From an uncultured Planctomycetales bacterium (GTDB lineage: Bacteria; Omnitrophota; Gorgyraeia; Gygaellales; JAHJCI01): DNA of 51,588 nucleotides. This document shows, in pieces, positions 17,675 through 40,700 of the stretch. The stretch is from positions 1 to 51,588 of the forward strand of contig CAZPQS010000001.1 of NCBI GenBank assembly GCA_964588765.1, read 5' to 3'. Positions within the stretch are counted from its first letter, which is position 1. Each line of letters starts with the position of its first letter. The translations under genes and the position numbers were made by a program. The notes beneath the pieces are model-generated. The model ran no database searches, was not told the origin of the DNA, and saw nothing but the letters and a program-made list of their open reading frames with translations.

Positions 17675-17676
17675 TT

Positions 17677-23770: not shown

Positions 23771-25519
23771 TTATCTTCTTTTATAAATATAGCATTGGGG
23801 TCCGTTATCTCGTTCTATCTTTCGCAAAAGTTCAAATTTTGATTCACTATTTTCTAATTTTTCAAATACCTTAGTCCAACTCGGAATAAATTGATGTTCC
23901 AACCATTTTATGGGATAGTATTTTTTAAATTCTTGTTTAAATTTTTCTCCCTTTGGCCATACTAATGTGCTCTGCGGCGGAGGACAAAAGAGCAGGCAAT
24001 CCATTAAATAAAAATCTCTGAGAAAATGAGCATGCATCTGTGCTAAATCTATAGGTTCTATAAAGCGGTCTTTAAGCCTTAACCAAAAAAGTCTCTCAAA
24101 TCTATAGGGAGGGAGACCATCGAAATCAATTAAGCCCAGCTTAACCTCTCTGTCTGCGGGATATTCCTTTCTTATCGCGCCCACTATTTCATCTGTTTGT
24201 AAATCTCTAAAGTCCTTATAATAAGGGAGCCCTTCCCCATATAATGTCCCGCCAAAAATTCTTATTGGTCCTATGGAGATATTTCTAAACTGATGTCTGG
24301 AATAAGAAAGCATAAAAAATTGGATTAACGCAAAAATAACTACCGCAGCCAAACTTAAATATCTAAATTTCCGATTTTTTATCCGATAAATTCCCCAGGC
24401 AGTTATAAGTGCCAATGCCGGAAAGATAGGCATCAAGAAGCGCCCATGCTTCACCAGAAGAATAAAAGAAAATAATAAGAAGGGAAATAATATCCAGCTT
24501 AGCAATATGCTTTTATATTTAACCTTTGCCCTGATAAAAAAAATAAAGGCTATGCAAAATATCAGAAAAAAGAAATACCCCAGAGAATTCTTAGACAGCT
24601 CAACTAAATGCCGGGAGTAAAGATATGCCTGCGAATAATCTCTTATCTCAAAAAAACCGGTATAAACCAAAAAATTAGAAAAAGTAGAATCCGCATGTTC
24701 CCTCAAAGACAATACTGTATCGGCAAGCTTATCAGCCCACCAGATTGAAGCAATTAAACCAGCGACGATTACAAAAAGTATGAAATTATAGATTATCTTC
24801 CGGGAAAGGGATATTCTTGCGATAGAATCTGGCGGATTCGTAGATAAAACGGATATTTCTTTGGAGGCATAAATCAATACTGCACATAGCGGCGCAGTAA
24901 TAAATATAATCGCCTGACCCTTAACCAGCATGCTTATACCCAGTGATAAACCTAAAAGAATGGCATATTTTCTATTTTTGAAATTTTCGCATTGAATAAG
25001 AAACAGAATAGTTAAGGTTACCATAGCTGTTAAAGGAAAATCTAAGGCATACTGACGCGAACTCTCAAATATCATCGGATACATAGATACTATAAAAGCA
25101 GCGCATATCCCGACAAATCTATTGACTATCTGTTTACCGATTAAATAAGTAGCAACCAGTAATATAAATAAAAATACCAGCATGGTTGATTTAACAGCAA
25201 GTAGTGATTTCCCGAATATAAAATAAAAAACAGATGCGCAAAGATTAACGAATCTGGGCCAATAGACATTATTTGTTATTCCAACAGGCGTATTTAATAA
25301 CTTAATTATATCTACTAATTTATCCCAAAAATGGACTGCTGTGTTAGATAAAATATCGGAAAGTTGATAAAAAAATTCTATCGAGAAAAACAAATGATTG
25401 GAGACATCTACCCCTATAGTAGAATTATTGCTTCTCACCCAGATATAATTGTTTATAAAATGGAAACAAAAAAATAGAATTAATAAAATAAGATAGATAT
25501 TTATCCTTCTCTGGTTCAT
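23771..25519 (-). CDS. Polytopic membrane protein, probable GT-C fold glycosyltransferase (ArnT/PMT_2-like)
   Basis: 582 aa. About 12 hydrophobic segments followed by a soluble C-terminal ~170 aa. ATGA-coupled to the upstream polyprenyl-phosphate GT2. Confidence 0.55.
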   Translation of the reverse strand: MNQRRINIYLILLILFFCFHFINNYIWVRSNNSTIGVDVSNHLFFSIEFFYQLSDILSNTAVHFWDKLVDIIKLLNTPVGITNNVYWPRFVNLCASVFYFIFGKSLLAVKSTMLVFLFILLVATYLIGKQIVNRFVGICAAFIVSMYPMIFESSRQYALDFPLTAMVTLTILFLIQCENFKNRKYAILLGLSLGISMLVKGQAIIFITAPLCAVLIYASKEISVLSTNPPDSIARISLSRKIIYNFILFVIVAGLIASIWWADKLADTVLSLREHADSTFSNFLVYTGFFEIRDYSQAYLYSRHLVELSKNSLGYFFFLIFCIAFIFFIRAKVKYKSILLSWILFPFLLFSFILLVKHGRFLMPIFPALALITAWGIYRIKNRKFRYLSLAAVVIFALIQFFMLSYSRHQFRNISIGPIRIFGGTLYGEGLPYYKDFRDLQTDEIVGAIRKEYPADREVKLGLIDFDGLPPYRFERLFWLRLKDRFIEPIDLAQMHAHFLRDFYLMDCLLFCPPPQSTLVWPKGEKFKQEFKKYYPIKWLEHQFIPSWTKVFEKLENSESKFELLRKIERDNGPQCYIYKRR

Positions 25520-26463
25520 TTTAACTTTTTGCGCTCGATAATTTCCTTAATCAAATATGGGGTGGTTGCCTGCGACATATAATATAATCTTATAATAATC
25601 TCGGCTAATAACCCTATGAGTAAAAACTGGACTCCCATTAAAAGAAAGGTAATGGTTATGAATAACGATGGGCTTACCCATATTCCCCCAAAGAATATTT
25701 TTCTGGCCAGAACAAATATACCGAGTAATATCCCGCAGGCAAATAGACAAAGCCCTATCCCGCCAAATAGATAAATAGGTTTTGTTAAATAATTCGCGAT
25801 AAATCTTAGTGTAAAGAGATCCAAAATTACTTTAAAGGTCCGCAATAATCCGTATTTCGATTTCCCGTAAACTCGCTTATAATGCGAGACTTCTATTTCT
25901 GCAACGAAATATCCTTTCATTGCCGCATATGCAGGAATAAATCTGTGCATCTGCCCATAGAGTTTTATCCCCTTAATTACCTCTCTTTTATATGCCTTCA
26001 ATGTACAGCCATAATCATTCAATTTAAGGCCGGCAATGGCTGAAATTAGTTTATTGGCTACATAGGATGGTATCCTGCGAGTAAATAAGGCATCTTTTCT
26101 ATCTTTGCGCCAACCGCTTACGACATCAAAGCCTTCTTCTATCTTTCTTAAGAACCTTGGGATATCCTCCGGTTCATTCTGCAGGTCGGCGTCCATTAAA
26201 ATTAAAATATCCCCTCTGGCATAGTCTACCCCTGCGGATATAGCAAGGGTTTGGCCAAAATTTCTTGTAAATCGAATTACCTTTATACTCTCATTTTCTC
26301 CCGCAAGTTCCGTAAGAATTTTATAACTGCCATCTTTGCTGCCATCTTCAATATAAATAACCTCGTATTCCTGCCCAACCTTGTTCAGGACTCGGTGAAT
26401 CTTCGAATCCAATAATTTTAAGTTCTTCTCTTCGTTATATACAGGAATGATAATCGACAGCAC
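25516..26463 (-). CDS. GT2 polyprenyl-phosphate glycosyltransferase (ArnC/GtrB/DPM1-like) with C-terminal TM helices
   Basis: 315 aa. IIIPVYNEEKN, EDGSKDGS, MDADLQNEPED, and two C-terminal hydrophobic helices. GTG start with GAGGA upstream. Confidence 0.85.
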   Translation of the reverse strand: MLSIIIPVYNEEKNLKLLDSKIHRVLNKVGQEYEVIYIEDGSKDGSYKILTELAGENESIKVIRFTRNFGQTLAISAGVDYARGDILILMDADLQNEPEDIPRFLRKIEEGFDVVSGWRKDRKDALFTRRIPSYVANKLISAIAGLKLNDYGCTLKAYKREVIKGIKLYGQMHRFIPAYAAMKGYFVAEIEVSHYKRVYGKSKYGLLRTFKVILDLFTLRFIANYLTKPIYLFGGIGLCLFACGILLGIFVLARKIFFGGIWVSPSLFITITFLLMGVQFLLIGLLAEIIIRLYYMSQATTPYLIKEIIERKKLK

Positions 26464-26588: not shown

Positions 26589-27077
26589 CTATTTATTAAA
26601 AACCTTGGCATTGGCCCAGACTACATATGAAGAACTTATTCCGTTATCTTTCACAATTAAGGTCAGTTGCTTTACATCCTTAACTGTCAGGTCAAGTTCC
26701 TCGGAATCACCGGCTCTCATCATTGCACTTTCGTAAATCTTTTTTCCATCTGCCAGCACTGTAAATTTGAGCTTACCCTTATATTCCGGGAAATCGTCGT
26801 GGTGCCCGATTACGCATTTAAAGTAATCGTATTCCCCGTCCAAATCATAGGTAAGCTCGGAATTAGAACTGACGCATAAACCTTTCTTAAATTCGCTCCC
26901 CTGAACGGTAATTAGAACTCCCTCCTCGTCCATATCCTTTAGATAATCGCCTGTGCTATAGAGAGGCTCTAAATCGCTAAGATAGGTCTGGAATGTAGCT
27001 TCACCGGTAGTCCTCTGTCCGCAAGAAATCACCAGAAACATGGACATGCAAAGCATTAACATTATAATCTTTCTCAT
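26589..27077 (-). CDS. Lipoprotein with NPCBM-like carbohydrate-binding domain (copy 1)
   Basis: 162 aa. Lipobox LVISC. YLSDLEP...KKGLCVSSNSELTYDL...YFKCVIGHHDD...KFTVLADGK...VVWANAKV matches the NPCBM/NEW2 pattern. Confidence 0.6.
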   Translation of the reverse strand: MRKIIMLMLCMSMFLVISCGQRTTGEATFQTYLSDLEPLYSTGDYLKDMDEEGVLITVQGSEFKKGLCVSSNSELTYDLDGEYDYFKCVIGHHDDFPEYKGKLKFTVLADGKKIYESAMMRAGDSEELDLTVKDVKQLTLIVKDNGISSSYVVWANAKVFNK

Positions 27078-27610
27078 TTCCCACCCCCTTTCTTTTTATG
27101 TCATCTTCCAACCTTGGCATTGGCCCAGACTACATATGAAGAACTTATTCCGTTATCTTTCACAATTAAGGTCAGTTGCTTTACATCCTTAACTGTCAGG
27201 TCAAGTTCCTCGGAATCACCGGCTCTCATCATTGCACTTTCGTAAATCTTTTTTCCATCTGCCAGCACTGTAAATTTGAGCTTACCCTTATATTCCGGGA
27301 AATCGTCGTGGTGCCCGATTACGCATTTAAAGTAATCGTATTCCCCGTCCAAATCATAGGTAAGCTCGGAATTAGAACTGACGCATAAACCTTTCTTAAA
27401 TTCGCTCCCCTGAACGGTAATTAGAACTCCCTCCTCGTCCATATCCTTTAGATAATCGCCTGTGCTATAGAGAGGCTCTAAATCGCTAAGATAGGTCTGG
27501 AATGTAGCTTCACCGGTAGTCCTCTGTCCGCAAGAAATCACCAGAAACATGGACATGCAAAGCATTAACATTATAATCTTTCTCATTTCCCACCCCCTTT
27601 CTTTTTATGT
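26601..27610. repeat. Perfect tandem duplication: a 501-bp unit (26601-27101 and 27110-27610) separated by 8 bp (catcttcc)
   Basis: I compared the two units base by base by eye and saw no mismatch. The period is 509 bp. Each unit carries nearly the whole lipoprotein CDS plus 24 nt of upstream sequence with a purine-rich Shine-Dalgarno (AAGGGGGTGGG). Confidence 0.9.
27101..27586 (-). CDS. Lipoprotein with NPCBM-like carbohydrate-binding domain (copy 2)
   Basis: 161 aa. Identical to copy 1 except for the last residues (…KVGR versus …KVFNK). Confidence 0.6.
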   Translation of the reverse strand: MRKIIMLMLCMSMFLVISCGQRTTGEATFQTYLSDLEPLYSTGDYLKDMDEEGVLITVQGSEFKKGLCVSSNSELTYDLDGEYDYFKCVIGHHDDFPEYKGKLKFTVLADGKKIYESAMMRAGDSEELDLTVKDVKQLTLIVKDNGISSSYVVWANAKVGR

Positions 27611-27626: not shown

Positions 27627-28838
27627 TTACTCAGCGCAACGATATTTTTTTGCATGATGGTTCGTATAACGACAATGCCCTTCTAAGCGCTTATAGGCCG
27701 ATATAAGCGAGGAAGCGCTCACTGCCCAATTATATTTTCTTTCTGCCCTTTGCCGTGCAAAACTGCTTAAATTTTCTCTTAATCCTCTATCGGCTAATAA
27801 CCTTAAGATACCGGCAGCTAAATAATGGGGGCTACCCGGCGCAACTAAGATACCCACCCCCCCCAACATCCTTCTTACCTCGCCTACATTGCTGGCGACG
27901 GTTGCCTTACCGATTGCTAAGTACTCAACAATCTTTAAGGGACTTTTGCAGCGGGTTACCTCCGTATCTTTAAAGGTAGCCACACAAATGTCAGCAGCAG
28001 AAATGTATTCGGGAATTTTGTGATGCGGCACAGAGCCTGTAAAAATAACCTTTTCCTCGACGCCCAATTCATTTACTAATTCCCTTAAAGGCTTTTCCAT
28101 AAACCCCTCGCCCACAATCATAAAGCGGGCATTTGGGTCTTTATGTAAAACAATGTTCGCTGTCCTTATAAATAAATCAATATATTGCGCCCCGTGAAGC
28201 TGGCCAACGTATAAAACCAAAGCTCCGGTTATGTTATATGTTTTTTTTATCTGACTACCGTCAATGCCCGGATTAAATTGCTGTAAATCCGCCCCCACGG
28301 GAATAGAAAAAATATTTTCTTTTTTAACTCCGAAATTTAAAGCCAAGGTCTTTAAATATTCACTCGACACAGAAACCGTATCACTCAATATCGGCAAAAA
28401 TCTCTCTAAGACTTTAAATGAAAAACCAATAAATTCAGAATGCAGCTTCCGCCCGCAGGATTCATACCAAATCATCTCCTCCCAGTCATCCCAGTCATAA
28501 TGCAAAGGCTTTCTATTTATATATGCCGTTATAAGAGCGAGAAGCGAAGCATAATGTTGGCATTTCTGAAAATGAATAATATCCGCCCATTTCCCTAAAC
28601 CGATAATCCGTGAAGTATTTTTAAGGAAAACCCTCGGGGAGGGATAGCGGGATAAAGGAATAACTTCATAGCCATCTAAAAAATGCGGCTTCAAATTGCC
28701 GTTATCGGTCAAGGGAAAATAAACAAGCCTGACTTGATAGTGATTCTTCACTAATTCAACCGCTAAAGATTTAATCCTCCTTGTCCAGGGCTCGCAGGGA
28801 GAATGGATATCGTGGGGATGAACCATAAGTATGCGCAT
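27627..28838 (-). CDS. GT4 (GT-B fold) glycosyltransferase
   Basis: 403 aa. MRILMVHPH. FMIVGEG...KVIFTGSVPH. PLKIVEYLAIGKATVASNVGE. The ATG directly abuts the TAG of the upstream gene (28839-28841). Confidence 0.8.
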   Translation of the reverse strand: MRILMVHPHDIHSPCEPWTRRIKSLAVELVKNHYQVRLVYFPLTDNGNLKPHFLDGYEVIPLSRYPSPRVFLKNTSRIIGLGKWADIIHFQKCQHYASLLALITAYINRKPLHYDWDDWEEMIWYESCGRKLHSEFIGFSFKVLERFLPILSDTVSVSSEYLKTLALNFGVKKENIFSIPVGADLQQFNPGIDGSQIKKTYNITGALVLYVGQLHGAQYIDLFIRTANIVLHKDPNARFMIVGEGFMEKPLRELVNELGVEEKVIFTGSVPHHKIPEYISAADICVATFKDTEVTRCKSPLKIVEYLAIGKATVASNVGEVRRMLGGVGILVAPGSPHYLAAGILRLLADRGLRENLSSFARQRAERKYNWAVSASSLISAYKRLEGHCRYTNHHAKKYRCAE

Positions 28839-31800
28839 CTATTCGCCTCCCAAGAGAGATTTCCGCCTCAGTTTTTTGAATATCCAGAAATAAATAATGT
28901 AAGATAGAGTAAAGGCAGAGATAGCGCAGAAGAGGATAAATTTTAACGGGCTCCGCTTCTTAAAAAGTCTGGCCTTGTCCACTCTTTGAGGAAGATTCTG
29001 CAGGCGATTTATCTCTGTCTTGAGTCTCTCCAGCTGTTCAGGCAATCCTATTTTGGAAATATTGGATAATTCTTCTTCCTTGCCCTCTTTTATATTGGTT
29101 TCCATCACCCTTAAGCCCAAATCGCAGGCTAAATCCAATAATCTCTGCGCTCTTTCTTTCCTCACTTCGTAATTATTTCCATCGAATGTCTCCCAAAGAT
29201 AATGCCAATTTTTCTCCGGCAATGATTTAAGATTATATTTTCTGTGGTCCTCATAAACCTCTGTCCCGGCAATAAGATGCAGGGTATTTATAGATTTTAT
29301 CGTATCGATATAAGAAGCATTTTCTTTGATAAACCTATGGGTCTGCTTAAAATCCCGTTCCCTCTCACCCGGAAAACCAATCATAATAAAAACTTCCACT
29401 TCCATACCCGCCCGCTTGGCTGCTCTTATATTACTCTGCGCTATCCCTGCCGTGTAAATTTTTTTCATACGTCTCAAAACCTCATCTGAGCCGCTTTCTA
29501 CGCCGATTTGAATCTTAAAACAACCGGCTTTGCGCATTTTATCAAACAATTTACAATCCATTTCCTTGCGCGGAGCAATCTGACCCGACCATTTTATTTT
29601 AAAATTATTTTTTATTAGCTTTTCGCATAAGATACTAATCTGCCCGATGTCGCCGTTCATTAAAGGGTCGCACACGGTAAACTCTTTGATTCCGTACCGA
29701 TTAACAATAAAACTGACTTCCTTAATTATATACTCCGGATCTCTTGCCCGGTAGCCGGGCATCAAGGAATAATTTTTACAAAAACTGCATCTGCCGATGC
29801 ATCCCCGGGACCACTCTACTATTAAGGACCGGCCGCCGCTATATTGAGACAGATTAAAGCCTTCGTAATCCGGAAAGGGAATGCCTTCAATGGGGCTTAC
29901 GGGCGGACGCGGCTTATATTCCCACTTGCCATTTAGTTTATTTGCCACACCCGTTAGATTATCCGTCCCCAAAATACCCTTTTCTTTTTGAATAATCTCA
30001 TAGAGGGTTTCTTCTCCTTCGCCTACGACAAAATAATCTATATATCCGGGGATATTATCGATAAAAACATCTCTTTGTTCTTTAGTAGAACAGGCGGGAC
30101 CCCCTAAAATAATCCTCTTCTCAGGCGCCTTATTCTTTATCCGCTTAATCAACTCTATAGTTAATCTCTCTTTAGGGTCAACCACAGAAAAACCGATTAA
30201 ATTGGTATCCGTAGATAATATTTTATTTACAGCATAATCAATCTCTGCTCTAAACAATTCGCAGACTAAGGGAAAGGTCTTCTCATTGCTCCAATAATTT
30301 TTATTCTCTACGTGCCAGAGCATTTTATAATCGTCCGTCGCATTATAAAAATAAATATTAAAATCATAGGTCTGGCATCTCAAGCCTTTATGTCGTATGT
30401 AGGAGTCTAAGTATCCCAAACCCAACGGCGGATTCTCCGGACCCCAGGGAGGCAAGGTTACCAGTAGAATATCTAAATTTGTTTTTCGCTCTTTGCTGAA
30501 TACGTTAGTCGTAAAAATGGGGATTTTCAATTGTTCCAGAAGCGATATGGCTTCCCGGGCCCTGTCTTTACGTATCTGGTATGTATTGCCGGGGCTTGAC
30601 CAATGGGAATCTCTCAATAAACCTTCTTCTGGAAAAATTATTCCATATTTCTGCGAATTATATGATAAGCCGGACCCTAAGGTAGCATTACAAATATTGA
30701 TATTAGTAATACCGGAAATATATTCCCTGTTTCTTTTTATGAATCCGAGGGTTTCCCGGAATTCTTCTTCACCCTCCCCCGGAAAACCAATAATAAAGTT
30801 CACCTGTGTGTTTATTCCCGCATCTCGGGTATCTTTCAGAATCCGCTCGACTACTTCTGTATTAATCAATTTTCCCATTAATTTTAAAACCCTGTTCGAA
30901 CCTGATTCTATACCATAATTTAATGTCAGGCATCCCGCTTGATGCATTTTTTTAAGTAATGCGAGGCTCATCCCTTTAGCCGGTATGGCCAAGGCTATCC
31001 AGGTAATTTTAAGATTATTTTTTATTATCAAATCGCATAATCTTTCTAATTCCTCAAAATTGCCGTTAAGCGCCGGGTCATTAAAATAGAATTTGGTAAT
31101 CCCGTATTGCTTAAGATGGTGTTTAATTTCTTCTATTATCTTTTCTGCCCGGCGGCTTCTATATTTACCCATCAATCGCCAATCATCACAAAAGGCGCAA
31201 TGGAAAATACACCCCCTGCTCATTAAAAGCGGTAAGTTTTTCTCTCTGTACTTGTTTAAATTAAACTCGGCATAGCTGGGGTATGGTAAATTATTTATGT
31301 CATTGATAATATAAGGGTTAAGGCTGCGGGAGTGATTTTGAAAAGAAATAATTCCCGGCAAATCCTTAACATCCTGTTTATTCTTTAATCTCCGTATAAA
31401 AGAGACTAAAGGCTCTTCTCCTTCTCCGACGAAAAAGTAATCCACCGTGCCTTCGGGGAAAATATTTCTCTCTGGGGAGGTAGCGGCGCCGCGGCCTCCA
31501 ACAACGATTATTTTTTGGGGGCTGCGCCGTTTAATCCTCTGCATAATTTCGATACTGAAAAATCTATTCGGCGCATAGACAGAGAAACCAATCAAATCAC
31601 AATCAAAAGATAATATCTTATTAACGCAGCGTTCAATCTCTCGTTCAAATTTATCTTTCATCCCGTTAAAAAATGAATAATCATCCCAATTTTCTGCATA
31701 GGACATCTGCCAATATTGTTTTAAAGGAATGTCGATATCGTTAAAGATATCTATATTGAAGTCTAAAATCTCGAAGTTAATTTTTCTTGATTTAAGGAAG

Positions 31801-32786
31801 GAGGCTATATAAGCTAAGCCCAAGGGTGGCATATCTATACCCCAAATCGGACAAATGGCTAAAAGAATATCCGGTTTTTTAGCTCTGTCTTTAGTTATAT
31901 CCGGTTCAGAAGGCTTATTTATAATAGCCGCTTCGCATCTCTTACAAATAAAATTAGCCGGAGATTCCTTCCTTCCGTCTCTTTTATCTCTTATATCCTG
32001 ATAATGCCGTGAATTCCAAATCTGATAAATATTTTGCCTATTTATATTTCCTAAGATTACCTCCCGCCTCCAGTCCATACAGCATAAGACCACATTGCCA
32101 TCTTCTACGATATGGACCATCTCATTAGCCCAGATAGAGGTACAGCCATTTATCTTCTCATGCCGGACTCTTGGTAAATCTTTAACATTGCCGGCACGGC
32201 TTATCGGGCCGTCAAAATAACTGATTCGCTCTATGCCCTCCTCCTGCCAGAACTTTATTGCTTCTTCTTTTTCTTCCGGCGTCAGATATTTATGCCGTAA
32301 GAAGGTAACCATGATAAAATCCTTGATATTCCTTTTTGCCTTGGCCTTTTCGATGAAACTTAGAACCCTGGCGAAGGTTGAATCATAATTTAAACCCATT
32401 GTCTTCTCTATGGTTTCTTTTTTTATGCCGTGCAAACTGATTCCAATCCAGTCCAGTTTGGAATCTATTAAATCCTGGGATAATCTTCCGGTCAATAGAC
32501 TTCCGTTAACAAGGATATGGATGTTTGCCCAGGGAGCCTTCTGTTTGGCATAATTTATCCTCCCGACTAAATAGGGGTCGGTTAAAGGCTCATTATTTAA
32601 GTAAAGGATTATTCTTTCAATATTTTTATGTTGGCTGCATTCATCGATGATTTTCCTGAATAAACTCTCGGTCATAATTTTTTTTGGAAATAAATCCTTT
32701 ATCTGCTCATATGGGCAAAAGACACAATGCGCATTACAGAGCGAAGTAGTCTGAATAGATAAATACTTAGGGAAATTTATGTCCAT
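28839..32786 (-). CDS. Triple radical SAM fusion: SPASM/twitch-type module, two B12-binding class-B modules, coiled-coil and C-terminal TM anchor
   Basis: 1315 aa. CNAHCVFC (C17/21/24) followed by C-x14-G-x4-CC and CKRC. SRGCIFHCAFC (C526/530/533). SRGCIGRCSFC (C996/1000/1003). The hydrophobic stretch FILFCAISAFTLSYIIYFWIF lies at aa 1283-1303. Confidence 0.85.
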   Translation of the reverse strand: MDINFPKYLSIQTTSLCNAHCVFCPYEQIKDLFPKKIMTESLFRKIIDECSQHKNIERIILYLNNEPLTDPYLVGRINYAKQKAPWANIHILVNGSLLTGRLSQDLIDSKLDWIGISLHGIKKETIEKTMGLNYDSTFARVLSFIEKAKAKRNIKDFIMVTFLRHKYLTPEEKEEAIKFWQEEGIERISYFDGPISRAGNVKDLPRVRHEKINGCTSIWANEMVHIVEDGNVVLCCMDWRREVILGNINRQNIYQIWNSRHYQDIRDKRDGRKESPANFICKRCEAAIINKPSEPDITKDRAKKPDILLAICPIWGIDMPPLGLAYIASFLKSRKINFEILDFNIDIFNDIDIPLKQYWQMSYAENWDDYSFFNGMKDKFEREIERCVNKILSFDCDLIGFSVYAPNRFFSIEIMQRIKRRSPQKIIVVGGRGAATSPERNIFPEGTVDYFFVGEGEEPLVSFIRRLKNKQDVKDLPGIISFQNHSRSLNPYIINDINNLPYPSYAEFNLNKYREKNLPLLMSRGCIFHCAFCDDWRLMGKYRSRRAEKIIEEIKHHLKQYGITKFYFNDPALNGNFEELERLCDLIIKNNLKITWIALAIPAKGMSLALLKKMHQAGCLTLNYGIESGSNRVLKLMGKLINTEVVERILKDTRDAGINTQVNFIIGFPGEGEEEFRETLGFIKRNREYISGITNINICNATLGSGLSYNSQKYGIIFPEEGLLRDSHWSSPGNTYQIRKDRAREAISLLEQLKIPIFTTNVFSKERKTNLDILLVTLPPWGPENPPLGLGYLDSYIRHKGLRCQTYDFNIYFYNATDDYKMLWHVENKNYWSNEKTFPLVCELFRAEIDYAVNKILSTDTNLIGFSVVDPKERLTIELIKRIKNKAPEKRIILGGPACSTKEQRDVFIDNIPGYIDYFVVGEGEETLYEIIQKEKGILGTDNLTGVANKLNGKWEYKPRPPVSPIEGIPFPDYEGFNLSQYSGGRSLIVEWSRGCIGRCSFCKNYSLMPGYRARDPEYIIKEVSFIVNRYGIKEFTVCDPLMNGDIGQISILCEKLIKNNFKIKWSGQIAPRKEMDCKLFDKMRKAGCFKIQIGVESGSDEVLRRMKKIYTAGIAQSNIRAAKRAGMEVEVFIMIGFPGERERDFKQTHRFIKENASYIDTIKSINTLHLIAGTEVYEDHRKYNLKSLPEKNWHYLWETFDGNNYEVRKERAQRLLDLACDLGLRVMETNIKEGKEEELSNISKIGLPEQLERLKTEINRLQNLPQRVDKARLFKKRSPLKFILFCAISAFTLSYIIYFWIFKKLRRKSLLGGE

Positions 32787-32788
32787 AT

Positions 32789-34174
32789 TTATTGTAAATA
32801 GCCTAAACCCTTGAGCCTTTCCTTTGCCTGTTCATCAAGCGGTTTTGCCAAAGGGGTTATATTTGGCTTTGGACGGCTCATCCACTCTTCTAATTTCGCC
32901 TTCAATAATTCAAATCGTTCTTTTTCAATCCCAATGAGATTATTTAATTCCTGTGGATCGTCTTTCAAATTATAAAGCTCATATCTAATGCCGTACTCTG
33001 AGGTTTCATAAATTAACTTCCATTCTCCGTCAAGAACAGACCGCAATTCTGCATCTGCCACATTCCCGGATATAATCTTAGTTGCCCCGATTTCGCTAAA
33101 GGCGGGGTTGCTAAATTTTTTATTTTTATTCAACACCAATGGATAAAAACTCAAACCGTCGATATTTATATTTAATTTTATTCTTAGAATCTCAAACAGA
33201 GAAGGCATAATGTCAATTAATTCTACCGGATATTTAATTCTCATACCGGAAGGCAACATATTTCCTTTAATAATTAAAGGGACGTTTATTTCTTCGTTAT
33301 ATAAACAATCGCCGTGCTGAAAATATATATTTCGCTCGCCGAGACTTTCGCCGTGATCTGCCGAAATAATAATAATGGTTTTTCCATATAGATTTCTATT
33401 CCTTAACGTATCTAATATCTCCCCTATTAAGCTATCAACAAAGGCGATTTCGCCGTCATATTGAGATAAATAGTAATTAATATCGGCGATGTTATCTTCC
33501 GATACCCATTCCGGTATTACTCCAACAAATTCCTTTCCTTTGCCTATAGGAATATATTTAGGCCTATCATTTGTTATAAAAACCCGATTAAATGGATAAG
33601 GGGGCCGATAAGGAGCATGGGGATATTCATAGAAATGTATCCAGAGAAAAAACTTCCTGTCTTTAAAATTATTAATCCATTTTTTTATATCCTTAGTTAA
33701 CTTAAATACATCTTCGTAATCAAAAATATAATCAAAACCCCTGTCAAGACCAGGAAAGTTTGTAAGCCATCCCTTATCGCCGAACGCGACAGCCGTATAA
33801 TAATTTTCTTTCTTTAAAATCTGGGCGAGGGTTATCAAATTCTTATCTAAGATACATCCAAAATTGGTTATTTTATGCGTGCTGGGATAAGTGGCTGTCA
33901 GAAGCGACGGTAAAGAACTCCCTGTCCAGGTTGACTGGCTGATTGCCTGGGTAAACAAAATACCTTCTTCAGCCAGTTTATCAATATTGGGCGAGGTATT
34001 TTGTTTATATCCATAACAACCTAAATGGTCGGGCCTTAAAGCATCAATGGTGATTAAAAGGATATTGGAATAATTCGCTCTATTAAAGAAATAGAATAAA
34101 TAAATTCCTGCAATAACCATCAAACAAAGCGATACGGCTGTGAACAATTTTTGCTTTCTATTTATTCTCATCAT
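32789..34174 (-). CDS. Membrane-anchored sulfatase-family protein without a C/S-x-P-x-R motif (paralog of 13026..14408)
   Basis: 461 aa. LITIDALRPDHLGCYGY and IISADHGESLGER blocks. N-terminal signal anchor. C-terminal LKGLGYLQ. Confidence 0.75.
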   Translation of the reverse strand: MMRINRKQKLFTAVSLCLMVIAGIYLFYFFNRANYSNILLITIDALRPDHLGCYGYKQNTSPNIDKLAEEGILFTQAISQSTWTGSSLPSLLTATYPSTHKITNFGCILDKNLITLAQILKKENYYTAVAFGDKGWLTNFPGLDRGFDYIFDYEDVFKLTKDIKKWINNFKDRKFFLWIHFYEYPHAPYRPPYPFNRVFITNDRPKYIPIGKGKEFVGVIPEWVSEDNIADINYYLSQYDGEIAFVDSLIGEILDTLRNRNLYGKTIIIISADHGESLGERNIYFQHGDCLYNEEINVPLIIKGNMLPSGMRIKYPVELIDIMPSLFEILRIKLNINIDGLSFYPLVLNKNKKFSNPAFSEIGATKIISGNVADAELRSVLDGEWKLIYETSEYGIRYELYNLKDDPQELNNLIGIEKERFELLKAKLEEWMSRPKPNITPLAKPLDEQAKERLKGLGYLQ

Positions 34175-34180
34175 AAAATC

Positions 34181-36295
34181 CTAGGGATCTTGACCATTTC
34201 TTAAATTAAGCAGCAACGGTAATTTGGCAGAGCCGTAAGCTTTCAGGTCAAATTCACTAAAATCAACGGAATCTCTGATTCTCTTATCTGGGGCAATATC
34301 CGATATCCTGCTTTCGGATTTTATATATTTTCCATTTTTATAAATGGCTATATTGGGCAGCGATTCATATTCTGTCCCGGTATTTACCGTATTTAAAATT
34401 CTGGGAAGGGTCGATTCCTCTTGCGCAAAGACGATAATGTCTACTGCTCCCGGAGGAATTAACCCATATACATCTTCATTTTCAAAAATTGACCCCAGAA
34501 AAATAGTAAAAACGAAAGGGTTATATTTTTTAAGAAGCGAACTTAATTTCAGAGAAAATATAAGATTCTCCCTGCTTATTAAAAAACAAAATTTATTTGT
34601 CTCTGCCGAAATCAACTCCTCCGATAATTTAAAGAATTCCTCCTCTAATGAATTAAATAAATATGAAAGCTCATGCTTAAAGCTCCAGCGATACCAGTTC
34701 CGGGAGTCCCATAGGGGCTTTAATTCTTTCGGAACGCGCTGATATAAAATGATATTCAAATCATAAACTAAAGGGCTAAATTCTCTGTTACCGCGCAGAG
34801 AAGAAAACATGGAAGCTAATCTCAAAGGTATTAAATCTGTCCTTGCCGGAGGAGAGAAAAATAAAGCCGCGGTTTTTTTACTGCTGTAGTCTTTTAATCC
34901 CGGCTGGTTCACTATTACAATGGGAATCTCAAAATTAGAGATTACAAAAATAGTTTTTCTTACCCGCTTGAGCCTCCCGGTGAGGTCTAATTCGTTTTCA
35001 TCCAGAAAGAAATTTAAATCCCTTTGCCTGGAAGGCAATTTAATCCTGAATTCCTGAAGATTTCTACCTATTCTTGAGGCAAGCATTATAACAAAAGAAG
35101 ATACATTGGTAATCTCGGAGATATGGTCTTTATTCCTTTTAATAAAAGACAGAGTCTCTTGAAAATCCTCTTCTGTTTCTCCGGGAAAACCGACAATTAT
35201 ATTCAGCGCCGTTTGTATGCCGGCTTCATGCGTAGCCCTGATTACCATTTCTGCATCTTCCGAGGCATAGAATTTATCCATTCTCTTAAGCGTGCGGTTA
35301 CATCCGCTTTCTACCCCATAGCACAGCCATGCGCAGCCTGCCTTCTTCATCTTCTTTAGTAATTTTAAATCCATATCTTTACGGATCATCGCATAGCTTC
35401 CCCAGGTAATATTAAGACCGGACTCAATAATTAGTTGACAGAGTTTTTCTAATTGTTTTAAATTGCCGTTGCAGATTAAATCGTTGAATGAAAAATTATT
35501 TATTTTATTTGTGTGTATATGGTATCTGATTTCATCGACAATCTTCTCGGGCGCCCGATATCGATAATTGCCACACATCAAGTGGTCAATGCAGAAAACA
35601 CATCTTCCAATACAGCCCCGGCTGATTAAAATAGGAATTACCCTTTCCTTATATGAACTGAGTGCGAAATCAGAAAATGTAGGAGAAGATAACTTATCAA
35701 TATCCTGCGTATAAAAAGCTTCAGCCGGCCTTAAGAACTCTTCCTTTTTATAAATCACGCCTCTAATATCATCAAATGCTTTATTATTCTTATAATTGCT
35801 GACTATTTTCTCTAACGCCTCTTCGCCCTCTCCGATAACAAGTGCATCAATCGCTCCGCGGTCATCCGGAAATATGAGCCGGCGGTCGTGCTCCCAAAAA
35901 CAGCCCGTTCCGCCAAAGATAATTATTTTATTTTTATCTTTCTTTTTTATTAAGGTCGCGATTTTAGCAGCAAGACCTATACTGGCGATATTAACCGAAA
36001 AACCCACTAAATTACAATCTACAGAGATTACTTCATTTACCAATGCCTCTATCTCTTCCCGGAAGGCATTAAATATCCTGGAGGTAATTTCGTAGGGAGG
36101 CATAGAGTTGATATTGCATATCTCCCAAAAAAATCTTTTTTCAGGAGAAGCCTTTCGATACAGGGTCAAATTGAAATCCAACATCTTAGACCCAAACCCC
36201 CTGGATTTCAAATGTTCGCAGATATAAGCCAAACCCAAAGGCGGCATCCTTGGTTCCCAAGGCGGAGCCATTATTAAGATTACGTCGTAATTCAT
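34181..36295 (-). CDS. B12-binding class-B radical SAM enzyme with an extra C-terminal B12-domain-like region
   Basis: 704 aa. PPLGLAYICEHL, VIGEGEE, SRGCIGRCVFC (C227/231/234). Residues ~475-704 resemble a second B12-type N-domain but have no following rSAM core. Confidence 0.8.
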   Translation of the reverse strand: MNYDVILIMAPPWEPRMPPLGLAYICEHLKSRGFGSKMLDFNLTLYRKASPEKRFFWEICNINSMPPYEITSRIFNAFREEIEALVNEVISVDCNLVGFSVNIASIGLAAKIATLIKKKDKNKIIIFGGTGCFWEHDRRLIFPDDRGAIDALVIGEGEEALEKIVSNYKNNKAFDDIRGVIYKKEEFLRPAEAFYTQDIDKLSSPTFSDFALSSYKERVIPILISRGCIGRCVFCIDHLMCGNYRYRAPEKIVDEIRYHIHTNKINNFSFNDLICNGNLKQLEKLCQLIIESGLNITWGSYAMIRKDMDLKLLKKMKKAGCAWLCYGVESGCNRTLKRMDKFYASEDAEMVIRATHEAGIQTALNIIVGFPGETEEDFQETLSFIKRNKDHISEITNVSSFVIMLASRIGRNLQEFRIKLPSRQRDLNFFLDENELDLTGRLKRVRKTIFVISNFEIPIVIVNQPGLKDYSSKKTAALFFSPPARTDLIPLRLASMFSSLRGNREFSPLVYDLNIILYQRVPKELKPLWDSRNWYRWSFKHELSYLFNSLEEEFFKLSEELISAETNKFCFLISRENLIFSLKLSSLLKKYNPFVFTIFLGSIFENEDVYGLIPPGAVDIIVFAQEESTLPRILNTVNTGTEYESLPNIAIYKNGKYIKSESRISDIAPDKRIRDSVDFSEFDLKAYGSAKLPLLLNLRNGQDP

Positions 36296-36296
36296 T

Positions 36297-37727
36297 TTAG
36301 GGAGCGATTTTTATTTCGCCATCAAAGTATAGATATTTCCCCGGTAGATATCTTTTATCAGTCTTTTTTATCTTATAACACTTTAATTTCCGCGCAGAAA
36401 AATAAGAAGAGGTATTCAATATACTTAAATAATAATCGTTATTTAAATTGTTACTTTTTAATAATACGGATGGCAATCTATCGGCAGCATCTCGAATACC
36501 GATTGACTTAATCTTACTTGCCTCTTTTTCAAATAATATAACCCATTCCTCATTAAACGAGTTGCTAAAACTACCGCAGGAACCGTCCCTGTTGAACCAG
36601 GCTTCATACTCATCTGTCAGCATAACGTTCGTCTGTTCTTCCCCTTCAATAATTAGCTCTTCGAGAACCTCCATTTCTATTCTCCAGGCAATACGCATAT
36701 CTTCTCTAAGTTCTATCTCCCAGACCTGAATTATGGGCAATGTCTGCCATTGCCCTTTCAGAATCATTTTTTCTTCACTTACCTTTTTAATTTGCCAATC
36801 CGCATGTTCTGTATCCTGCCAAAAGCCATATGAAAAAATTGAGGTGTATAAACCAAAGCCTTTGGTCAATTCCCGCCCCTTCCAAAATAAACGCCCTTTA
36901 CCATTGTCAAAAAGGAAGCTTAACCCCTTTCTTTTTAATGAACGGGATGCAACAAGATCTCTTATATAATCCAGAATGTGAAAGCTGGGCTCTATATTCA
37001 TTACCGGGATTCCCGGTTTAGAAATGCCTGATAAATAACTTTTATAATCGCTTTTGGATAATGATATATCGTTATCTTGTTTTAGGCTTAAGCATCGCTT
37101 CCAATATCGACAGAAAGAGAATGTAACAGGAAAAGCCTCCTTCCTGAAGAAATTGCACAAACAATACGTTATTTTTGTTATTTCATCGATGGCAGGGGTA
37201 TGTCTAATCAAGAAGGATACTGTCTCATTATAATCTTCATCTGTTTCGAAAGGGAAACCTAAAATTAGATTTATTCCGACACTAATATCATTTTGATGAG
37301 CCAGATATAAAAGCGAAGAGATATCCTTTGTATTGAAACTCAACCCCATCTTTTTAAGAAGTTTATCCGAGCCTGTGATTATCTCAAAGATTATCTTTCT
37401 GCAGCCCGCTTCTCGCATCTTTATAAAATCAGCCTCTTTCATATTCGGATTTACGATTGCCGCCGCCGACCAAGATATCTGTAATCTATGCTTTATAATT
37501 AAATTACAAAACTGCTTCAATAAATCTAAATCGATATTGCAAAAATCAATAAATTCGTAGTCTTTGATTTTATACCTTTTAAAATAATTTTTAATCTCGC
37601 GAGGGATAAATTCCGCTAAATTGTAATCCATATTCGGTTTAGAAAAATATGTATTAATCCTCTGCCAGCAATCGTTATTCACAAACAAAGCCAAGTTTTT
37701 TAAATCACTGGAGTCCATGTCTTTCAC
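36297..37727 (-). CDS. Radical-SAM-core remnant lacking the Cx3Cx2C motif and B12 domain, fused to a domain of unknown function (HADWQI domain)
   Basis: 476 aa. Residues ~55-190 align to the post-cluster part of the class-B cores (ISWSAAAIVNP, REAGCRKI, LILGFPFETDEDYNETVSFL). No Cx3Cx2C anywhere. The start is either GTG (37727, GTGA overlap) or ATG (37718). Confidence 0.5.
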   Translation of the reverse strand: MKDMDSSDLKNLALFVNNDCWQRINTYFSKPNMDYNLAEFIPREIKNYFKRYKIKDYEFIDFCNIDLDLLKQFCNLIIKHRLQISWSAAAIVNPNMKEADFIKMREAGCRKIIFEIITGSDKLLKKMGLSFNTKDISSLLYLAHQNDISVGINLILGFPFETDEDYNETVSFLIRHTPAIDEITKITYCLCNFFRKEAFPVTFSFCRYWKRCLSLKQDNDISLSKSDYKSYLSGISKPGIPVMNIEPSFHILDYIRDLVASRSLKRKGLSFLFDNGKGRLFWKGRELTKGFGLYTSIFSYGFWQDTEHADWQIKKVSEEKMILKGQWQTLPIIQVWEIELREDMRIAWRIEMEVLEELIIEGEEQTNVMLTDEYEAWFNRDGSCGSFSNSFNEEWVILFEKEASKIKSIGIRDAADRLPSVLLKSNNLNNDYYLSILNTSSYFSARKLKCYKIKKTDKRYLPGKYLYFDGEIKIAP

Positions 37728-40700
37728 AATTGTTTGTTTAACCTTAAGTGCATCTGTTCGTTATGCATCAGGTTATCGCACATCTTCAGGCAGCCAATCT
37801 CAGAGAAGTAAGAATCGCTTTTAGACAGATATTTAGCCTTTGAACGGAACTCATTATATTTTTGGCTAAGCCATATATCCTTAAAATTATGCTCATTGAT
37901 ATTGCCCATCGGCTTTTTGACTCCCCGGCAACAAGGAACAATTGCGCCATCGGCTAAAATGCGGGCAAATATCCAACCCGCATAGCAAGGTATCTGATTT
38001 ATTCTATGTTGGTCATAGTTACCTGCCAAAACTCCTTCTCCTTTGAGACGCCAGATAAAACCGTCAAAGTAATCTAATTTTATTCTTTTTTTCTGTCCCT
38101 GCTGAAGTCCCTGAATCTGCTCTGCTTGTTTCAGGGCTGCCTGCTTTTGCTCCTCATCTAAAAGCAAAGAATCTGTTGCGCCCTCAATTGTATCAATAAG
38201 CGTAAAATATACTCCATCTACCATCAAATCCAACGCAAAATCGAACATCTGTTTTATTTCCGAGTAATTTAAATTACAGATAACATTGCATAAAGTAACG
38301 AATGGCTTATCCTTTTTCTCATTACTAAGAATCTTAAGGTTTTCCTTTATATTTCCAAAGATACGCTCCGGGGCGCAGGGATGTGTCTTTGCATACGTTT
38401 TTTCATTGCTTGCCCAAAGGCTTATCGCTAATTCATCTACTCTCAACCTTATTAAATCTCTTACCATCTGTTTATTTAATAAAGAAAAATTTGTGGTTAA
38501 GCAACATATCAAACCCCTGGTTTTTGTATATTCAATCAGCTCCATAATCTTAGGATGCATAAACGGCTCTCCGCCGCCGGTAAAACGAATCCGCTTGGTT
38601 CCTAAATCAGCAAGCTCATTGATGAGGCTCCTGGCCCTGGAAAAATTTATTTCCTGTCTAAGCCACCGGCTATCCGGTCTTTGTTTTAAAAGCGGGGAAT
38701 AAAGCCAACAACCAATGCATTTCTCATTGCAGCGATTAGTTATATCGATTACTACCTGCTCTGGGCCGGTAAAGGCCTCCCTGCCATTAATAATCCCCGA
38801 AATCACTAAATTTTCAGACCTTTTTTGTAAATCCGGATTTAAATTTGGTTTTTGTTTTATTTTAGAAACAATTTTTAAAAGATTACGTTCAATTGCGGTT
38901 AAAGACATTATACGATTATGCATATAAATATTGCGGCCGATATCGTCGCAACTCTTATAACAACCGGTTTCTTTTATGTCCGGGTCATTGCCGATTAAAT
39001 AAAAGAACGGGTCTTTTTTCTCATAAACCAAGGTTTTCTTGCGGAAATATTGCTGCCTTTCGTCATTCCAGATATGACTGAAACTTTGCTGATACAAATT
39101 ACCCGTAGGTATACGATGGGCTTTAAGGCAGGCATTTACATCGCCGTTAGGCATTATCCGGCTGAAACACCAGCCAATATAACATGGGATTTTATTGATG
39201 ATATTGCGGTCATAGGTAGCTTTTGATAAATCAAGGGAAGAGCAGATGCGCCGGAGAAAAGAGTCGAATCTGAATAATAACACGCCGTCCAGATATCCGC
39301 GCCTGTCTATGCATTCGGCAATCTGTTGAGCATCGTTCTGTAATCTTTTTATCTGATCGGAATTTAAAATCAACTTATCCGTTTTCCCCGGCACTATATC
39401 GATTAAGGTAAACTCTACCGATTCGGAGCCGGTCTCTTGAGCAAGATAAACCATATCTTTAAGTTCGTGGTAATTCAGATTAAAGATAACATTGTATAAT
39501 TTTATATACGGCGTCTGTATCTTGCTTCTATTTAAAAATATAAGATTTTCCTTAATTTGCTTGAAGGTCTCCTTATTTTTATTGGGGTGGGTGAGGGCAT
39601 AGGTTTTCCCCGTAGCCGACCAGGTGCTTACCGTCAAGTGCTCAACTCCTAAATCTATCAATCTCCTTATGTTTTCCTTATTCAGCAGGGTAAAATTTGT
39701 ATTTACATAACAGTTAAACCCCTTCTTTTTAGCATAGGTCAAGATTGACATAATCTCAGGATGCATAAAGGGCTCTCCGCCTCCGGAGAAATAAATCTCC
39801 TTTGTGCCCATCTGCGATAATTCATCGAGTAATTCCTTCACTAAGCCGAAGGGAAGGGTTCGCTTCTTTTCCTGAGGGGGCAATGTCTTCTCTTCCAGAA
39901 GCGGAGAATTACACCAACACCCGATGCAGTTATTATTACAATTATTGGTCAAATCAATCTGTACATGAAAAGGGCCCTTAAAGGCATATCGGCCATTAAA
40001 TATACCCAGCATATCTAAGTAATTTTTAGCAAACCTTCCCGACCTGATATAATTGAATAGCTTAAAAACAGTGTTAACGAACCCCCGGGTTTTAACTTTA
40101 TCCCTCAGCAATCTTAAGCTGGACGGATACTGATAAATATCCTCGAATGAATACTTTTTTACCCGTGGCGGGTTACTTCGGGCTCCCTTAAGAAGCGCGA
40201 AACTATGAAGATGAGGGATAGGGCCTTTGGTATATATTTTAAGGGTATGCTCTCCTTCTAAGATATGCAAACCTGCCTCCTCAAACCAGCGAAAATCTTT
40301 TTTCTCCCAATCCGGGGTCGTAGAACTCATTGCCCTCTTTTTAATTAAATTACCGTCAAAATAAAGCTCTACCGGACGGGTGTCTTTGCTCGCATAATAA
40401 GACCAAAGCCCATACTGCCCGGTTTCGCTGACAGCTATCCTGTATTCTGCAAAACCAAAACCGCAACCGCCGTCAATCACTATGCCCTCGCCGAAATTAT
40501 GGTCTTGAGTATTCAGGTTCCCGGATTCGAATGTATGGGCGGGAACAATAAGTCTTATTTCTGCATCGGGAAGATTATCTTCTCCCGCCATTTCTTCTCT
40601 CCGATAGAATTGATAATCCGGACCTTTATCTTTCTGGTCCATGAAGATTGACTCTTTAATTTGTAAATTCATTCCTACATTATCGCAAGACTTATAGCAA

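Follow-up and report, generated by a model that had tools for sequence, protein, structure and literature searches.

A predicted tail-anchored protein joining one BtrN-like and two class-B radical SAM modules in an Omnitrophota glycosyltransferase cluster

Radical S-adenosylmethionine (rSAM) enzymes are normally studied as single-module proteins, and several of them resemble parts of the protein described here, a 1315-amino-acid (aa) fusion encoded on the minus strand (28839..32786) of contig CAZPQS010000001.1, of which the stretch of 51,588 nucleotides (nt) that we analysed is called the window. BtrN, the butirosin 2-deoxy-scyllo-inosamine dehydrogenase (PDB 4M7T), is a Twitch-type rSAM enzyme which, like the first module of the fusion, has ~250-290 aa, the rSAM cluster and one auxiliary cysteine set (C...GxxxxC...CxxC). 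The class B enzymes TsrM, TokK, CysS, MgmA/QCMT, OxsB, GenK, GenD1, Fms7 and MoeK5 have, like its second and third modules, an N-terminal Rossmann B12-type (cobalamin) domain and then a CX3CX2C TIM barrel; to our knowledge, each known class-B enzyme has a single class-B module, and the repeat methylators TokK and CysS act several times through a single active site. More than one rSAM domain per polypeptide, serving one pathway, is found in FbiC, the fused CofG-CofH FO synthase, which has two fixed rSAM domains, no cobalamin domain and no anchor. The polytheonamide tailoring set (the epimerase PoyD with the B12 methylases PoyB and PoyC) combines, like the fusion, an rSAM hydrogen-abstracting enzyme with several B12-rSAM C-methyltransferases.

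The fusion and its family differ from each of these. Compared with known class B enzymes, the family has one to four diverged B12 modules in one chain, with a Twitch rSAM module in front and a predicted membrane anchor behind, and compared with FbiC it has 2-5 rSAM domains of two classes in variable combinations. The polytheonamide enzymes are separate proteins with a peptide substrate, whereas here the modules are fused and stand in a glycosyltransferase context, with no precursor gene in the window. Module 1 shares only ~19% identity with BtrN and has one extra invariant cysteine, giving a CC pair; unlike BtrN, it shares its chain with B12-rSAM modules and a predicted membrane anchor, and its gene lies in a glycosyltransferase cluster and not in an aminoglycoside cluster. 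The parts (Twitch rSAM, class-B rSAM, tail anchor) are known, while the two-class fusion with 2-5 rSAM domains, swappable internal modules and a conserved anchor is new. A literature search on radical SAM proteins of Omnitrophota/Omnitrophica, on multi-domain or tandem rSAM and on cobalamin rSAM together with glycan found no paper describing the fusion family; ‘two radical SAM domains’ are mentioned in one paper (PMC11917521), the words ‘fusion’, ‘tandem’ and ‘membrane’ do not occur in a class-B review of 2026, and in an Omnitrophota preprint of the same year radical SAM figures only as one of the Pfam families of its long proteins.

We read the 1315-aa protein, with a probability of roughly 0.55, as an oxygen-independent enzyme, anchored in the membrane, that would tailor a glycan or lipid-linked sugar by oxidation or epimerisation and by C-methylations, in a conserved Omnitrophota cluster that would build a modified surface glycoconjugate. 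Its architecture of three rSAM modules is near certain. The open reading frame (ORF) is the longest at the site, with an ATG start and a TAG stop, and Pfam finds in its product three Radical_SAM domains (E 1.5e-64), two B12-binding domains (PF02310, 2.6e-23) and one SPASM domain at aa 219-285 (7.4e-13). Assignment to the radical SAM superfamily (PF04055) agrees with intact CX3CX2C motifs at aa 17, 526 and 996 and with TIM-barrel folds in AlphaFold2 (AF2) models. A preliminary description of this DNA had proposed one SPASM-type and two class-B modules in a single chain, which the Pfam domains bear out, and all the motifs that it quoted (CNAHCVFC, PPLGLAYIASFL, FVGEGEE, SRGCIFHCAFC, PPLGLGYLDSYI, VVGEGEE, SRGCIGRCSFC and LERLKTEINRLQNL) are found in the translation where it had placed them. 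It also had the stop codon abutting the start of a glycosyltransferase family 4 (GT4) gene, and indeed the minus strand reads gaa TAG ATG cgc at this junction (TAGATG at 28841-28836), the TAG touching the GT4 ATG; at the 5' junction, 2 nt separate the TAA of the upstream gene from the fusion ATG. The continuity of the ORF, raised there as a point to be checked, holds: an identical 1315-aa protein is present in a separate Logan assembly of run SRR14802572, full-length orthologs of the same architecture (41-76% identity, ~100% coverage) occur in ENA, JGI, NCBI and Logan metagenome assemblies, and base composition is even along the ORF region, and therefore the fusion is not a chimera.

Module 1, earlier named ‘SPASM-type’, has an rSAM core with a C-terminal iron-sulfur domain, but not a full SPASM domain. 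A SPASM domain has a seven-cysteine pattern, CX9-15GX4C ... CX2CX5CX3C ... C, for two auxiliary clusters, while a Twitch domain is an abbreviated SPASM fold with about four cysteines (C...GX4C...CX2C) and one auxiliary cluster. The cysteines of module 1 that are invariant in 85 aligned homologs are the three of the SAM cluster (C17, C21 and C24) and five accessory ones, spaced as C215-x14-G230-x4-C235C236 and then C281-x2-C284; the CX2CX5CX3C block of two-cluster SPASM domains is absent. The module thus shows the Twitch and not the SPASM pattern, in line with its cysteine alignment to BtrN and its top fold match, and the Pfam SPASM model still matches it because Twitch is a truncated SPASM. 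In a PDB sequence search, BtrN was the only significant solved relative (E 6.9e-11), with accessory cysteines aligned, and in a Foldseek search with the AF2 model of aa 1-297 (mean predicted local distance difference test score, pLDDT, 90.8) it came first as well (E 5.6e-14; TM-score 0.76 normalised to the target). It was followed by BlsE (rank 2), the SPASM peptide maturases CteB, SuiB and EpeE, the anaerobic sulfatase-maturating enzyme (anSME, rank 4) and MoaA, with the further sugar enzymes DesII and SpeY at ranks 13 and 23. The substrates of BtrN, BlsE, DesII and SpeY are, as told in part by PDB entry titles, sugars or cyclitols. Module 1 stays below every curated NCBIfam cut-off; going by sequence and model together, it is a Twitch enzyme of the BtrN kind with one predicted auxiliary [4Fe-4S] cluster.

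Between modules 2 and 3 the identity is 36%, and the AF2 model of aa 298-1315 (mean pLDDT 87.4, predicted template modelling score, pTM, 0.54) shows a beta-alpha Rossmann domain and then a TIM barrel, twice, although with this pTM the arrangement between the two modules is uncertain. Their best PDB fold matches in Foldseek are TsrM (1.2e-19), OxsB, AprD4 (aminoglycoside-bound), CysS, MgmA and TokK, and a PDB sequence search weakly returned the same set. The class B architecture, an N-terminal Rossmann B12-type domain plus an rSAM barrel, is therefore found by the two PF02310 hits, by AF2 and by Foldseek, and the cobalamin-binding architecture that the preliminary description had expected in both modules is present in structure prediction. 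We know of no universal sequence motif for cobalamin binding in class B rSAM enzymes; modules 2 and 3 have the predicted Rossmann and TIM architecture of cobalamin-dependent enzymes, from which we infer cobalamin binding itself. By analogy with class B enzymes, their likely role would be C-methylation at unactivated carbons. The best NCBIfam family for each is TIGR03975, with 147.5 bits for module 2 and 151.2 bits for module 3 against a curated cut-off of 281.85. The whole 1315-aa protein scores 290.7 bits, but membership on this score was rejected because it is the sum of two modules, each at about half of the cut-off, and singly the modules reach no curated NCBIfam cut-off.

The C-terminal hydrophobic helix, also part of the preliminary description, was assessed by hydropathy, hydrophobic moment and a Hessa-scale sum. 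With a 19-residue Kyte-Doolittle window, aa 1280-1303 reach 2.04, being the only segment above 1.6 outside a Rossmann strand, and end 12 residues before the C-terminus. The core of the helix (aa 1283-1303), helical in the AF2 model, shows uniform hydrophobicity (Eisenberg mean 0.83, moment 0.01), has a summed insertion energy of ~-1.75 kcal/mol on the Hessa scale, and has basic flanks with charges of +6 and +4. Such a helix, 10-20 residues from the end, is conserved in 48 of the 100 listed proteins of the homolog search, the query included, and so this claim stands; the coiled-coil-like segment said to precede the helix does not, as AF2 gives a single conserved helix of ~13 residues. A tail-anchored protein has a single transmembrane helix at most ~35 residues from the C-terminus, no N-terminal signal or other transmembrane helix, and a cytosolic N-terminal bulk; the 1315-aa protein shows this layout at the sequence level, its membrane insertion being predicted. 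There is no signal peptide, because the rSAM motif begins at residue 17, and therefore the catalytic bulk should be cytoplasmic. In the family the tail reads ...INxLQxLP...KKRSxFK-fiLL..iYTLFYIxYFWiF-KKLrGkxLLGG, with the core YTLFYIxYFW, and since the sequence itself is conserved and not only its hydrophobicity, the helix may make a specific contact within the membrane and not serve as an anchor only.

When the query modules were mapped on the homologs, module 1 was found to be followed by one to four B12 modules, in length classes of ~850, 1320, 1820 and 2290 aa, so that the family proteins carry 2-5 rSAM domains of two classes. The named close relatives are nearly all ‘Candidatus Omnitrophota/Omnitrophica’, and on this basis the window was assigned to the same phylum. 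We clustered 148 B12 modules by average linkage on identities and placed them in a neighbour-joining tree without bootstrap support. Nearly every last module of the anchored proteins, module 3 among them, falls in clade A (44 modules, with 56% mean identity within the clade and 30-35% to other large clades), and the internal modules belong to clades B, C, F and H. Among the architectures are A (14 proteins), C-A (9), B-A (5, the query among them), F-A, H-A, F-C-A, C-F-A, B-F-A, B-H-A, C-H-A and C-B-H-A; a fixed G-B-D-E form without anchor occurs in non-Omnitrophota, e.g., Candidatus Lernaella and Myxococcales. As the architectures are drawn from several clades, family proteins of the same length carry different internal modules. 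The family can thus be called combinatorial, in that 0-3 internal B12 modules, taken from at least four clades, stand between a module 1 and a last B12 module plus anchor that are both conserved.

Orthologs with the modules in separate genes, which the preliminary description had proposed to look for, exist both as split genes and as stand-alone homologs of module 1. In loci L007 and L010, a single in-frame TAA lies between a ~1020-aa gene (module 1, one B12 module and an extension) and the 560-572-aa gene that follows it (A-type module and tail); one codon is thus the difference between fused and split forms, which may interconvert by loss or gain of one stop codon. Stand-alone module-1 homologs are common (290-340 aa, 30-52% identity; 190 cluster representatives at E<=1e-30 among 1.84 billion), and a search for their names gave only unnamed metagenomic proteins. 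Modules of the cluster also occur in many other fusion permutations, such as a 1020-aa protein (P0095) with a B-type B12 module, an SPASM rSAM module of the type encoded at 37724-42049 and a C-terminal hydrophobic tail of the same kind. In an 856-aa protein (P0096), a module-1 homolog is fused to an ortholog of the GT4 encoded downstream of our fusion (48.6% over 385 aa), which is the strongest link to glycan chemistry.

This GT4 is also a conserved neighbour (Table 1), its ortholog (48-69% identity) lying 0-2 genes downstream of the fusion in 11 related loci. In the Omnitrophota loci L001, L002, L005-L011 and L023, the conserved order is an HpnJ-like gene (~790 aa), a triple rSAM-SPASM fusion, in part a degenerate rSAM gene, a B12-rSAM gene (~700 aa) and a sulfatase-like gene, then the 1315-aa-type fusion, GT4, GT4 and glycosyltransferase family 2 (GT2). 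The triple rSAM-SPASM fusion is the second multi-rSAM fusion of the cluster, and its orthologs (1299-1436 aa) stand upstream of the 1315-aa-type fusion in related loci. The Lernaella homolog is flanked by carbamoyltransferase and MBOAT+GDSL genes. Our 51.6-kb window has ~34 genes, all on the minus strand and with intergenic gaps of at most ~125 nt, and contains, by our count, 19 rSAM domains, which is unusually dense. Its rSAM proteins include the 1441-aa triple rSAM-SPASM fusion, a GT4-rSAM-SPASM fusion, two HpnJ-like proteins and six further single-module B12-rSAM proteins; in addition, there are two GT4, two GT2 and two GT-C (PMT_2) proteins, an AsnB-type amidotransferase, CysD/CysN, four proteins of the alkaline-phosphatase superfamily and three U32 proteins. 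No Rfam family, the cobalamin riboswitch included, was detected in the window.

Table 1. Features of the fusion gene and of its surroundings (window positions; the last row gives positions in two related loci)
Feature	Position	Strand	Remarks
Whole ORF	28839..32786	-	Twitch-rSAM, B12-rSAM, B12-rSAM, tail with C-terminal hydrophobic helix
Module 1, aa 1-290, rSAM core + BtrN-like Twitch domain	31917..32786	-	Pfam, PDB sequence search, AF2/Foldseek
CX3CX2C of module 1 (C17, C21, C24; within CNAHCVFC)	32715..32738	-	Invariant in 85 aligned homologs
Auxiliary-cluster cysteine region of module 1 (C215, C235, C236, C281, C284)	31935..32144	-	Invariant in 85 homologs; aligns with BtrN Twitch cysteine region
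Module 2, aa 305-765, class-B-type rSAM, internal variable module of clade B	30492..31874	-	Rossmann ~aa 307-468, then TIM barrel
CX3CX2C of module 2 (C526, C530, C533; SRGCIFHCAFC)	31188..31211	-	
Module 3, aa 766-1235, class-B-type rSAM, conserved terminal module of clade A	29082..30491	-	
CX3CX2C of module 3 (C996, C1000, C1003; SRGCIGRCSFC)	29778..29801	-	
Conserved short tail helix, aa 1249-1265, PEQLERLKTEINRLQNL	28992..29042	-	Family consensus L-K-x-x-I-N-x-L-Q-x-L-P
C-terminal hydrophobic helix, predicted membrane anchor, aa 1283-1303, FILFCAISAFTLSYIIYFWIF	28878..28940	-	
Basic C-terminal tail, KKLRRKSLLGGE	28842..28877	-	Family-conserved LLGG end
TAG stop abutting ATG of downstream GT4 gene	28836..28841	-	
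GT4 glycosyltransferase, conserved downstream partner	27627..28838	-	Start abuts fusion stop
ArnC/GtrB-like GT2, polyprenyl-phosphate glycosyltransferase type	25516..26463	-	Two C-terminal transmembrane helices; 233 bits over full length
GT-C (PMT_2) multi-pass membrane glycosyltransferase	23771..25519	-	
Sulfatase-family (alkaline-phosphatase superfamily) protein, upstream	32789..34174	-	N-terminal membrane anchor; no C/S-x-P-x-R motif
704-aa B12-rSAM paralog, closest to module 2 (39.6% identity)	34181..36295	-	Second B12-binding-like domain, aa 471-697, without rSAM core
476-aa rSAM-like protein	36297-37727	-	35% identical to module 2 over 190 aa; no CX3CX2C, no B12 domain
1441-aa triple rSAM-SPASM fusion, conserved upstream partner	37724..42049	-	CX3CX2C at aa 33, 704, 1107
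807-aa GT4 + rSAM-SPASM fusion	45833-48256	-	Further direct glycosyltransferase-rSAM link
Split-form loci	L007 2989-7734; L010 3450-8234		Same frame, single TAA between genes

Taken together, the glycan context of the fusion is moderately supported, while the chemistry that we propose for it is speculative. Module 1 would abstract a hydrogen atom from a sugar or cyclitol carbon in the manner of BtrN (alcohol-to-ketone oxidation or epimerisation), each B12 module would methylate an unactivated carbon of that sugar, or perform a different class-B reaction there, and the anchor would position the enzyme next to the lipid-linked sugar and the membrane glycosyltransferases, the decoration pattern being set by the number and type of internal B12 modules. 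The ‘one oxidation or epimerisation plus two methylations’ of the preliminary description, and its ‘channelling’, can only be inferred. A lipid-linked substrate is plausible, as it fits the ArnC-like GT2, the GT-C enzymes and the module 1-GT4 fusion found elsewhere. Class-B rSAM methylases acting on sugars and lipid-linked sugars are on record (GenK, GenD1, Fms7, MoeK5, HpnP/R), and GenK, GenD1, Fms7 and MoeK5 modify unactivated carbons of aminoglycosides and a phosphoglycolipid (PMC9204698, PMC12931638).

Several points weigh against assigning the fusion to the tailoring of a glycan or lipid-linked sugar. Since no curated NCBIfam cut-off is reached, no function is transferable to any module, and the best-scoring named families for modules 2 and 3 are, far below cut-off, C-methyltransferases of peptides, namely of RiPPs (peptides that are synthesised ribosomally and modified post-translationally). 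AprD4, which is among the best structural matches, has the class-B fold and is not known to use cobalamin. As to the anchor, the tail after the helix carries a net charge of +4, which is unfavourable for translocation, so that a true N-in/C-out span is not certain, and forms of ~1020 aa and ~1150 aa, as well as the ~2290-aa non-Omnitrophota forms, are without anchor, so that the chemistry can do without it. Neither a flippase nor Wzx/Wzy nor an initiating phosphoglycosyltransferase was recognised in the window, and the HpnJ-like and ‘ladderane-type’ rSAM similarities of the neighbours would fit a lipid substrate too.

It is on this last point that another explanation builds, namely that the fusion acts on the hydrocarbon portion of a membrane lipid, such as a hopanoid, ether or membrane-spanning lipid, by introducing methyl branches, cyclising or cross-linking it, and that the anchor places the enzyme on the lipid, which we hold to be unlikely. 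The C-terminal anchor is there, modules 2 and 3 give partial matches to TIGR04072 ‘lipid biosynthesis B12-binding/rSAM’ (92-105 bits), HpnJ and HpnR, and the two HpnJ-like neighbours score 217 and 264 bits; however, all these scores lie far below the curated cut-offs of 360-650 bits, and the closest relatives of module 1 are sugar and cyclitol enzymes. HpnJ, moreover, acts on the sugar head group of a hopanoid, and sugar tailoring fits such a similarity equally well. Omnitrophota metagenome-assembled genomes do carry homologs of membrane-spanning-lipid and ether-lipid genes (PMC11868695), and ‘ladderane-like’ clusters were called in this phylum (PMC9902471), but the conserved partners of the fusion are GT4, GT4 and GT2, a fusion of module 1 with GT4 exists, and the window holds no lipid-synthesis core genes.

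A peptide or protein maturase, RiPP-like and of the proteusin type, in which module 1 epimerises or cross-links residues and the B12 modules C-methylate side chains, seems to us a rather improbable alternative. An rSAM epimerase together with B12 methylases is the logic of polytheonamide, and it would agree with the best NCBIfam names of modules 2 and 3, TIGR03975 ‘RiPP maturation rSAM C-methyltransferase’ (the 147.5 and 151.2 bits given above, about half of the 281.85-bit cut-off) and ApyD. Module 1 also resembles the SPASM peptide maturases CteB, SuiB and EpeE structurally, but BtrN is ahead of all peptide maturases in both sequence and fold. Two near-identical small lipoprotein genes lie nearby (26589-27586); on the other hand, a hidden precursor peptide gene in the window was considered and rejected, since gaps of at most ~125 nt leave no room for it, Pfam reports no RiPP-recognition element, leader peptidase or exporter domain on the window proteins, and the conserved partners are glycosyltransferases.

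That module 1 is an anSME for the adjacent sulfatase-family protein, the rest of the fusion being unrelated cargo, is very improbable and in our view largely refuted. A sulfatase-family gene stands directly upstream here as well as in L005 and L010, anSME is among the fold matches of module 1 (rank 4), and one homolog is annotated ‘AslB’ by JGI; yet many orthologs (L001, L002, L009, L011) have no adjoining sulfatase gene. An anaerobic sulfatase maturase would be expected to reach 349 bits with TIGR03942, to hold three clusters and to have a partner with a C/S-x-P-x-R formylglycine motif, while module 1 reaches 31 bits, has five accessory cysteines and lacks the second auxiliary-cluster motif, and neither the adjacent nor the second sulfatase-family protein of the window has the formylglycine motif, and for this reason the assignment was rejected. 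The second ‘sulfatase’ (13026-14486, minus strand) also has an N-terminal membrane anchor, and the two are perhaps not sulfatases but members of the alkaline-phosphatase superfamily that work in the periplasm as phospho-transferases or hydrolases.

That the ORF is a product of chimeric assembly or of reading through separate genes, as the single in-frame TAA between the module 1+2 and module 3+tail genes of L007 and L010 might bring to mind, has a negligible chance, given the identical ORF in an independent assembly, the B-A module order in at least five proteins from different archives with dozens more fused forms, the uniform composition across the ORF and three intact CX3CX2C motifs.

If the fusion is a tailoring enzyme of lipid-linked sugars, the family could be extended, tentatively and with more doubt than confidence, to a radical-chemistry ‘assembly line’, in which a fixed BtrN-like initiator and a fixed, anchored terminal B12 module bracket 0-3 swappable internal modules (B, C, F, H), the composition would program which carbons of the lipid-linked sugar are alkylated, and recombination of modules would lead to strain-specific, oxygen-independent diversity of surface glycans in Omnitrophota. 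A series of one to four B12 modules behind a Twitch rSAM module, with a conserved anchor, would be a new organisation of radical tailoring, and the cluster points to a surface glycoconjugate with heavy C-modification in a phylum whose members are largely uncultured anaerobes, possibly dependent on hosts. The family is also a comparative set, with the same scaffold carrying different internal modules and with split and fused, anchored and soluble forms, which allows testing what determines the carbon that a class-B module modifies, and if channelling results from the fusion; with 19 rSAM domains in 51.6 kb, the cluster also offers much to enzyme discovery.

Some minor features of the window remain to be mentioned. 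The 476-aa rSAM-like protein (36297-37727) may, by its sequence, be a degenerate, non-catalytic rSAM; its ortholog is kept in L002 (465 aa), and family members of ~1020-1045 aa have a C-terminal extension homologous to this protein. Genes for a CysN-like GTPase and a CysD-like protein of the 3'-phosphoadenosine-5'-phosphosulfate reductase family (sulfate adenylyltransferase type) lie at 16466-18492 (minus strand), with no sulfotransferase or adenosine-5'-phosphosulfate kinase recognised beside them in the window, and a 263-aa protein at 9533-10324 has no Pfam match. Three peptidase-U32-family genes (1111-2322, 5309-6499 and 10355-11395, minus strand) stand amid B12-rSAM genes; the U32 family includes the oxygen-independent hydroxylases UbiU/UbiV, and by analogy the three proteins may be anaerobic hydroxylases acting on the same product. 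At 26589-27586 (minus strand), a tandem pair of genes encodes NPCBM-domain lipoproteins of 162 and 161 aa (lipobox LVISC) that differ only in their last 2-3 residues, and this repeat, with a period of 509 nt and 100% DNA identity over at least 300 nt, goes back either to a duplication of very recent date or to faulty assembly.

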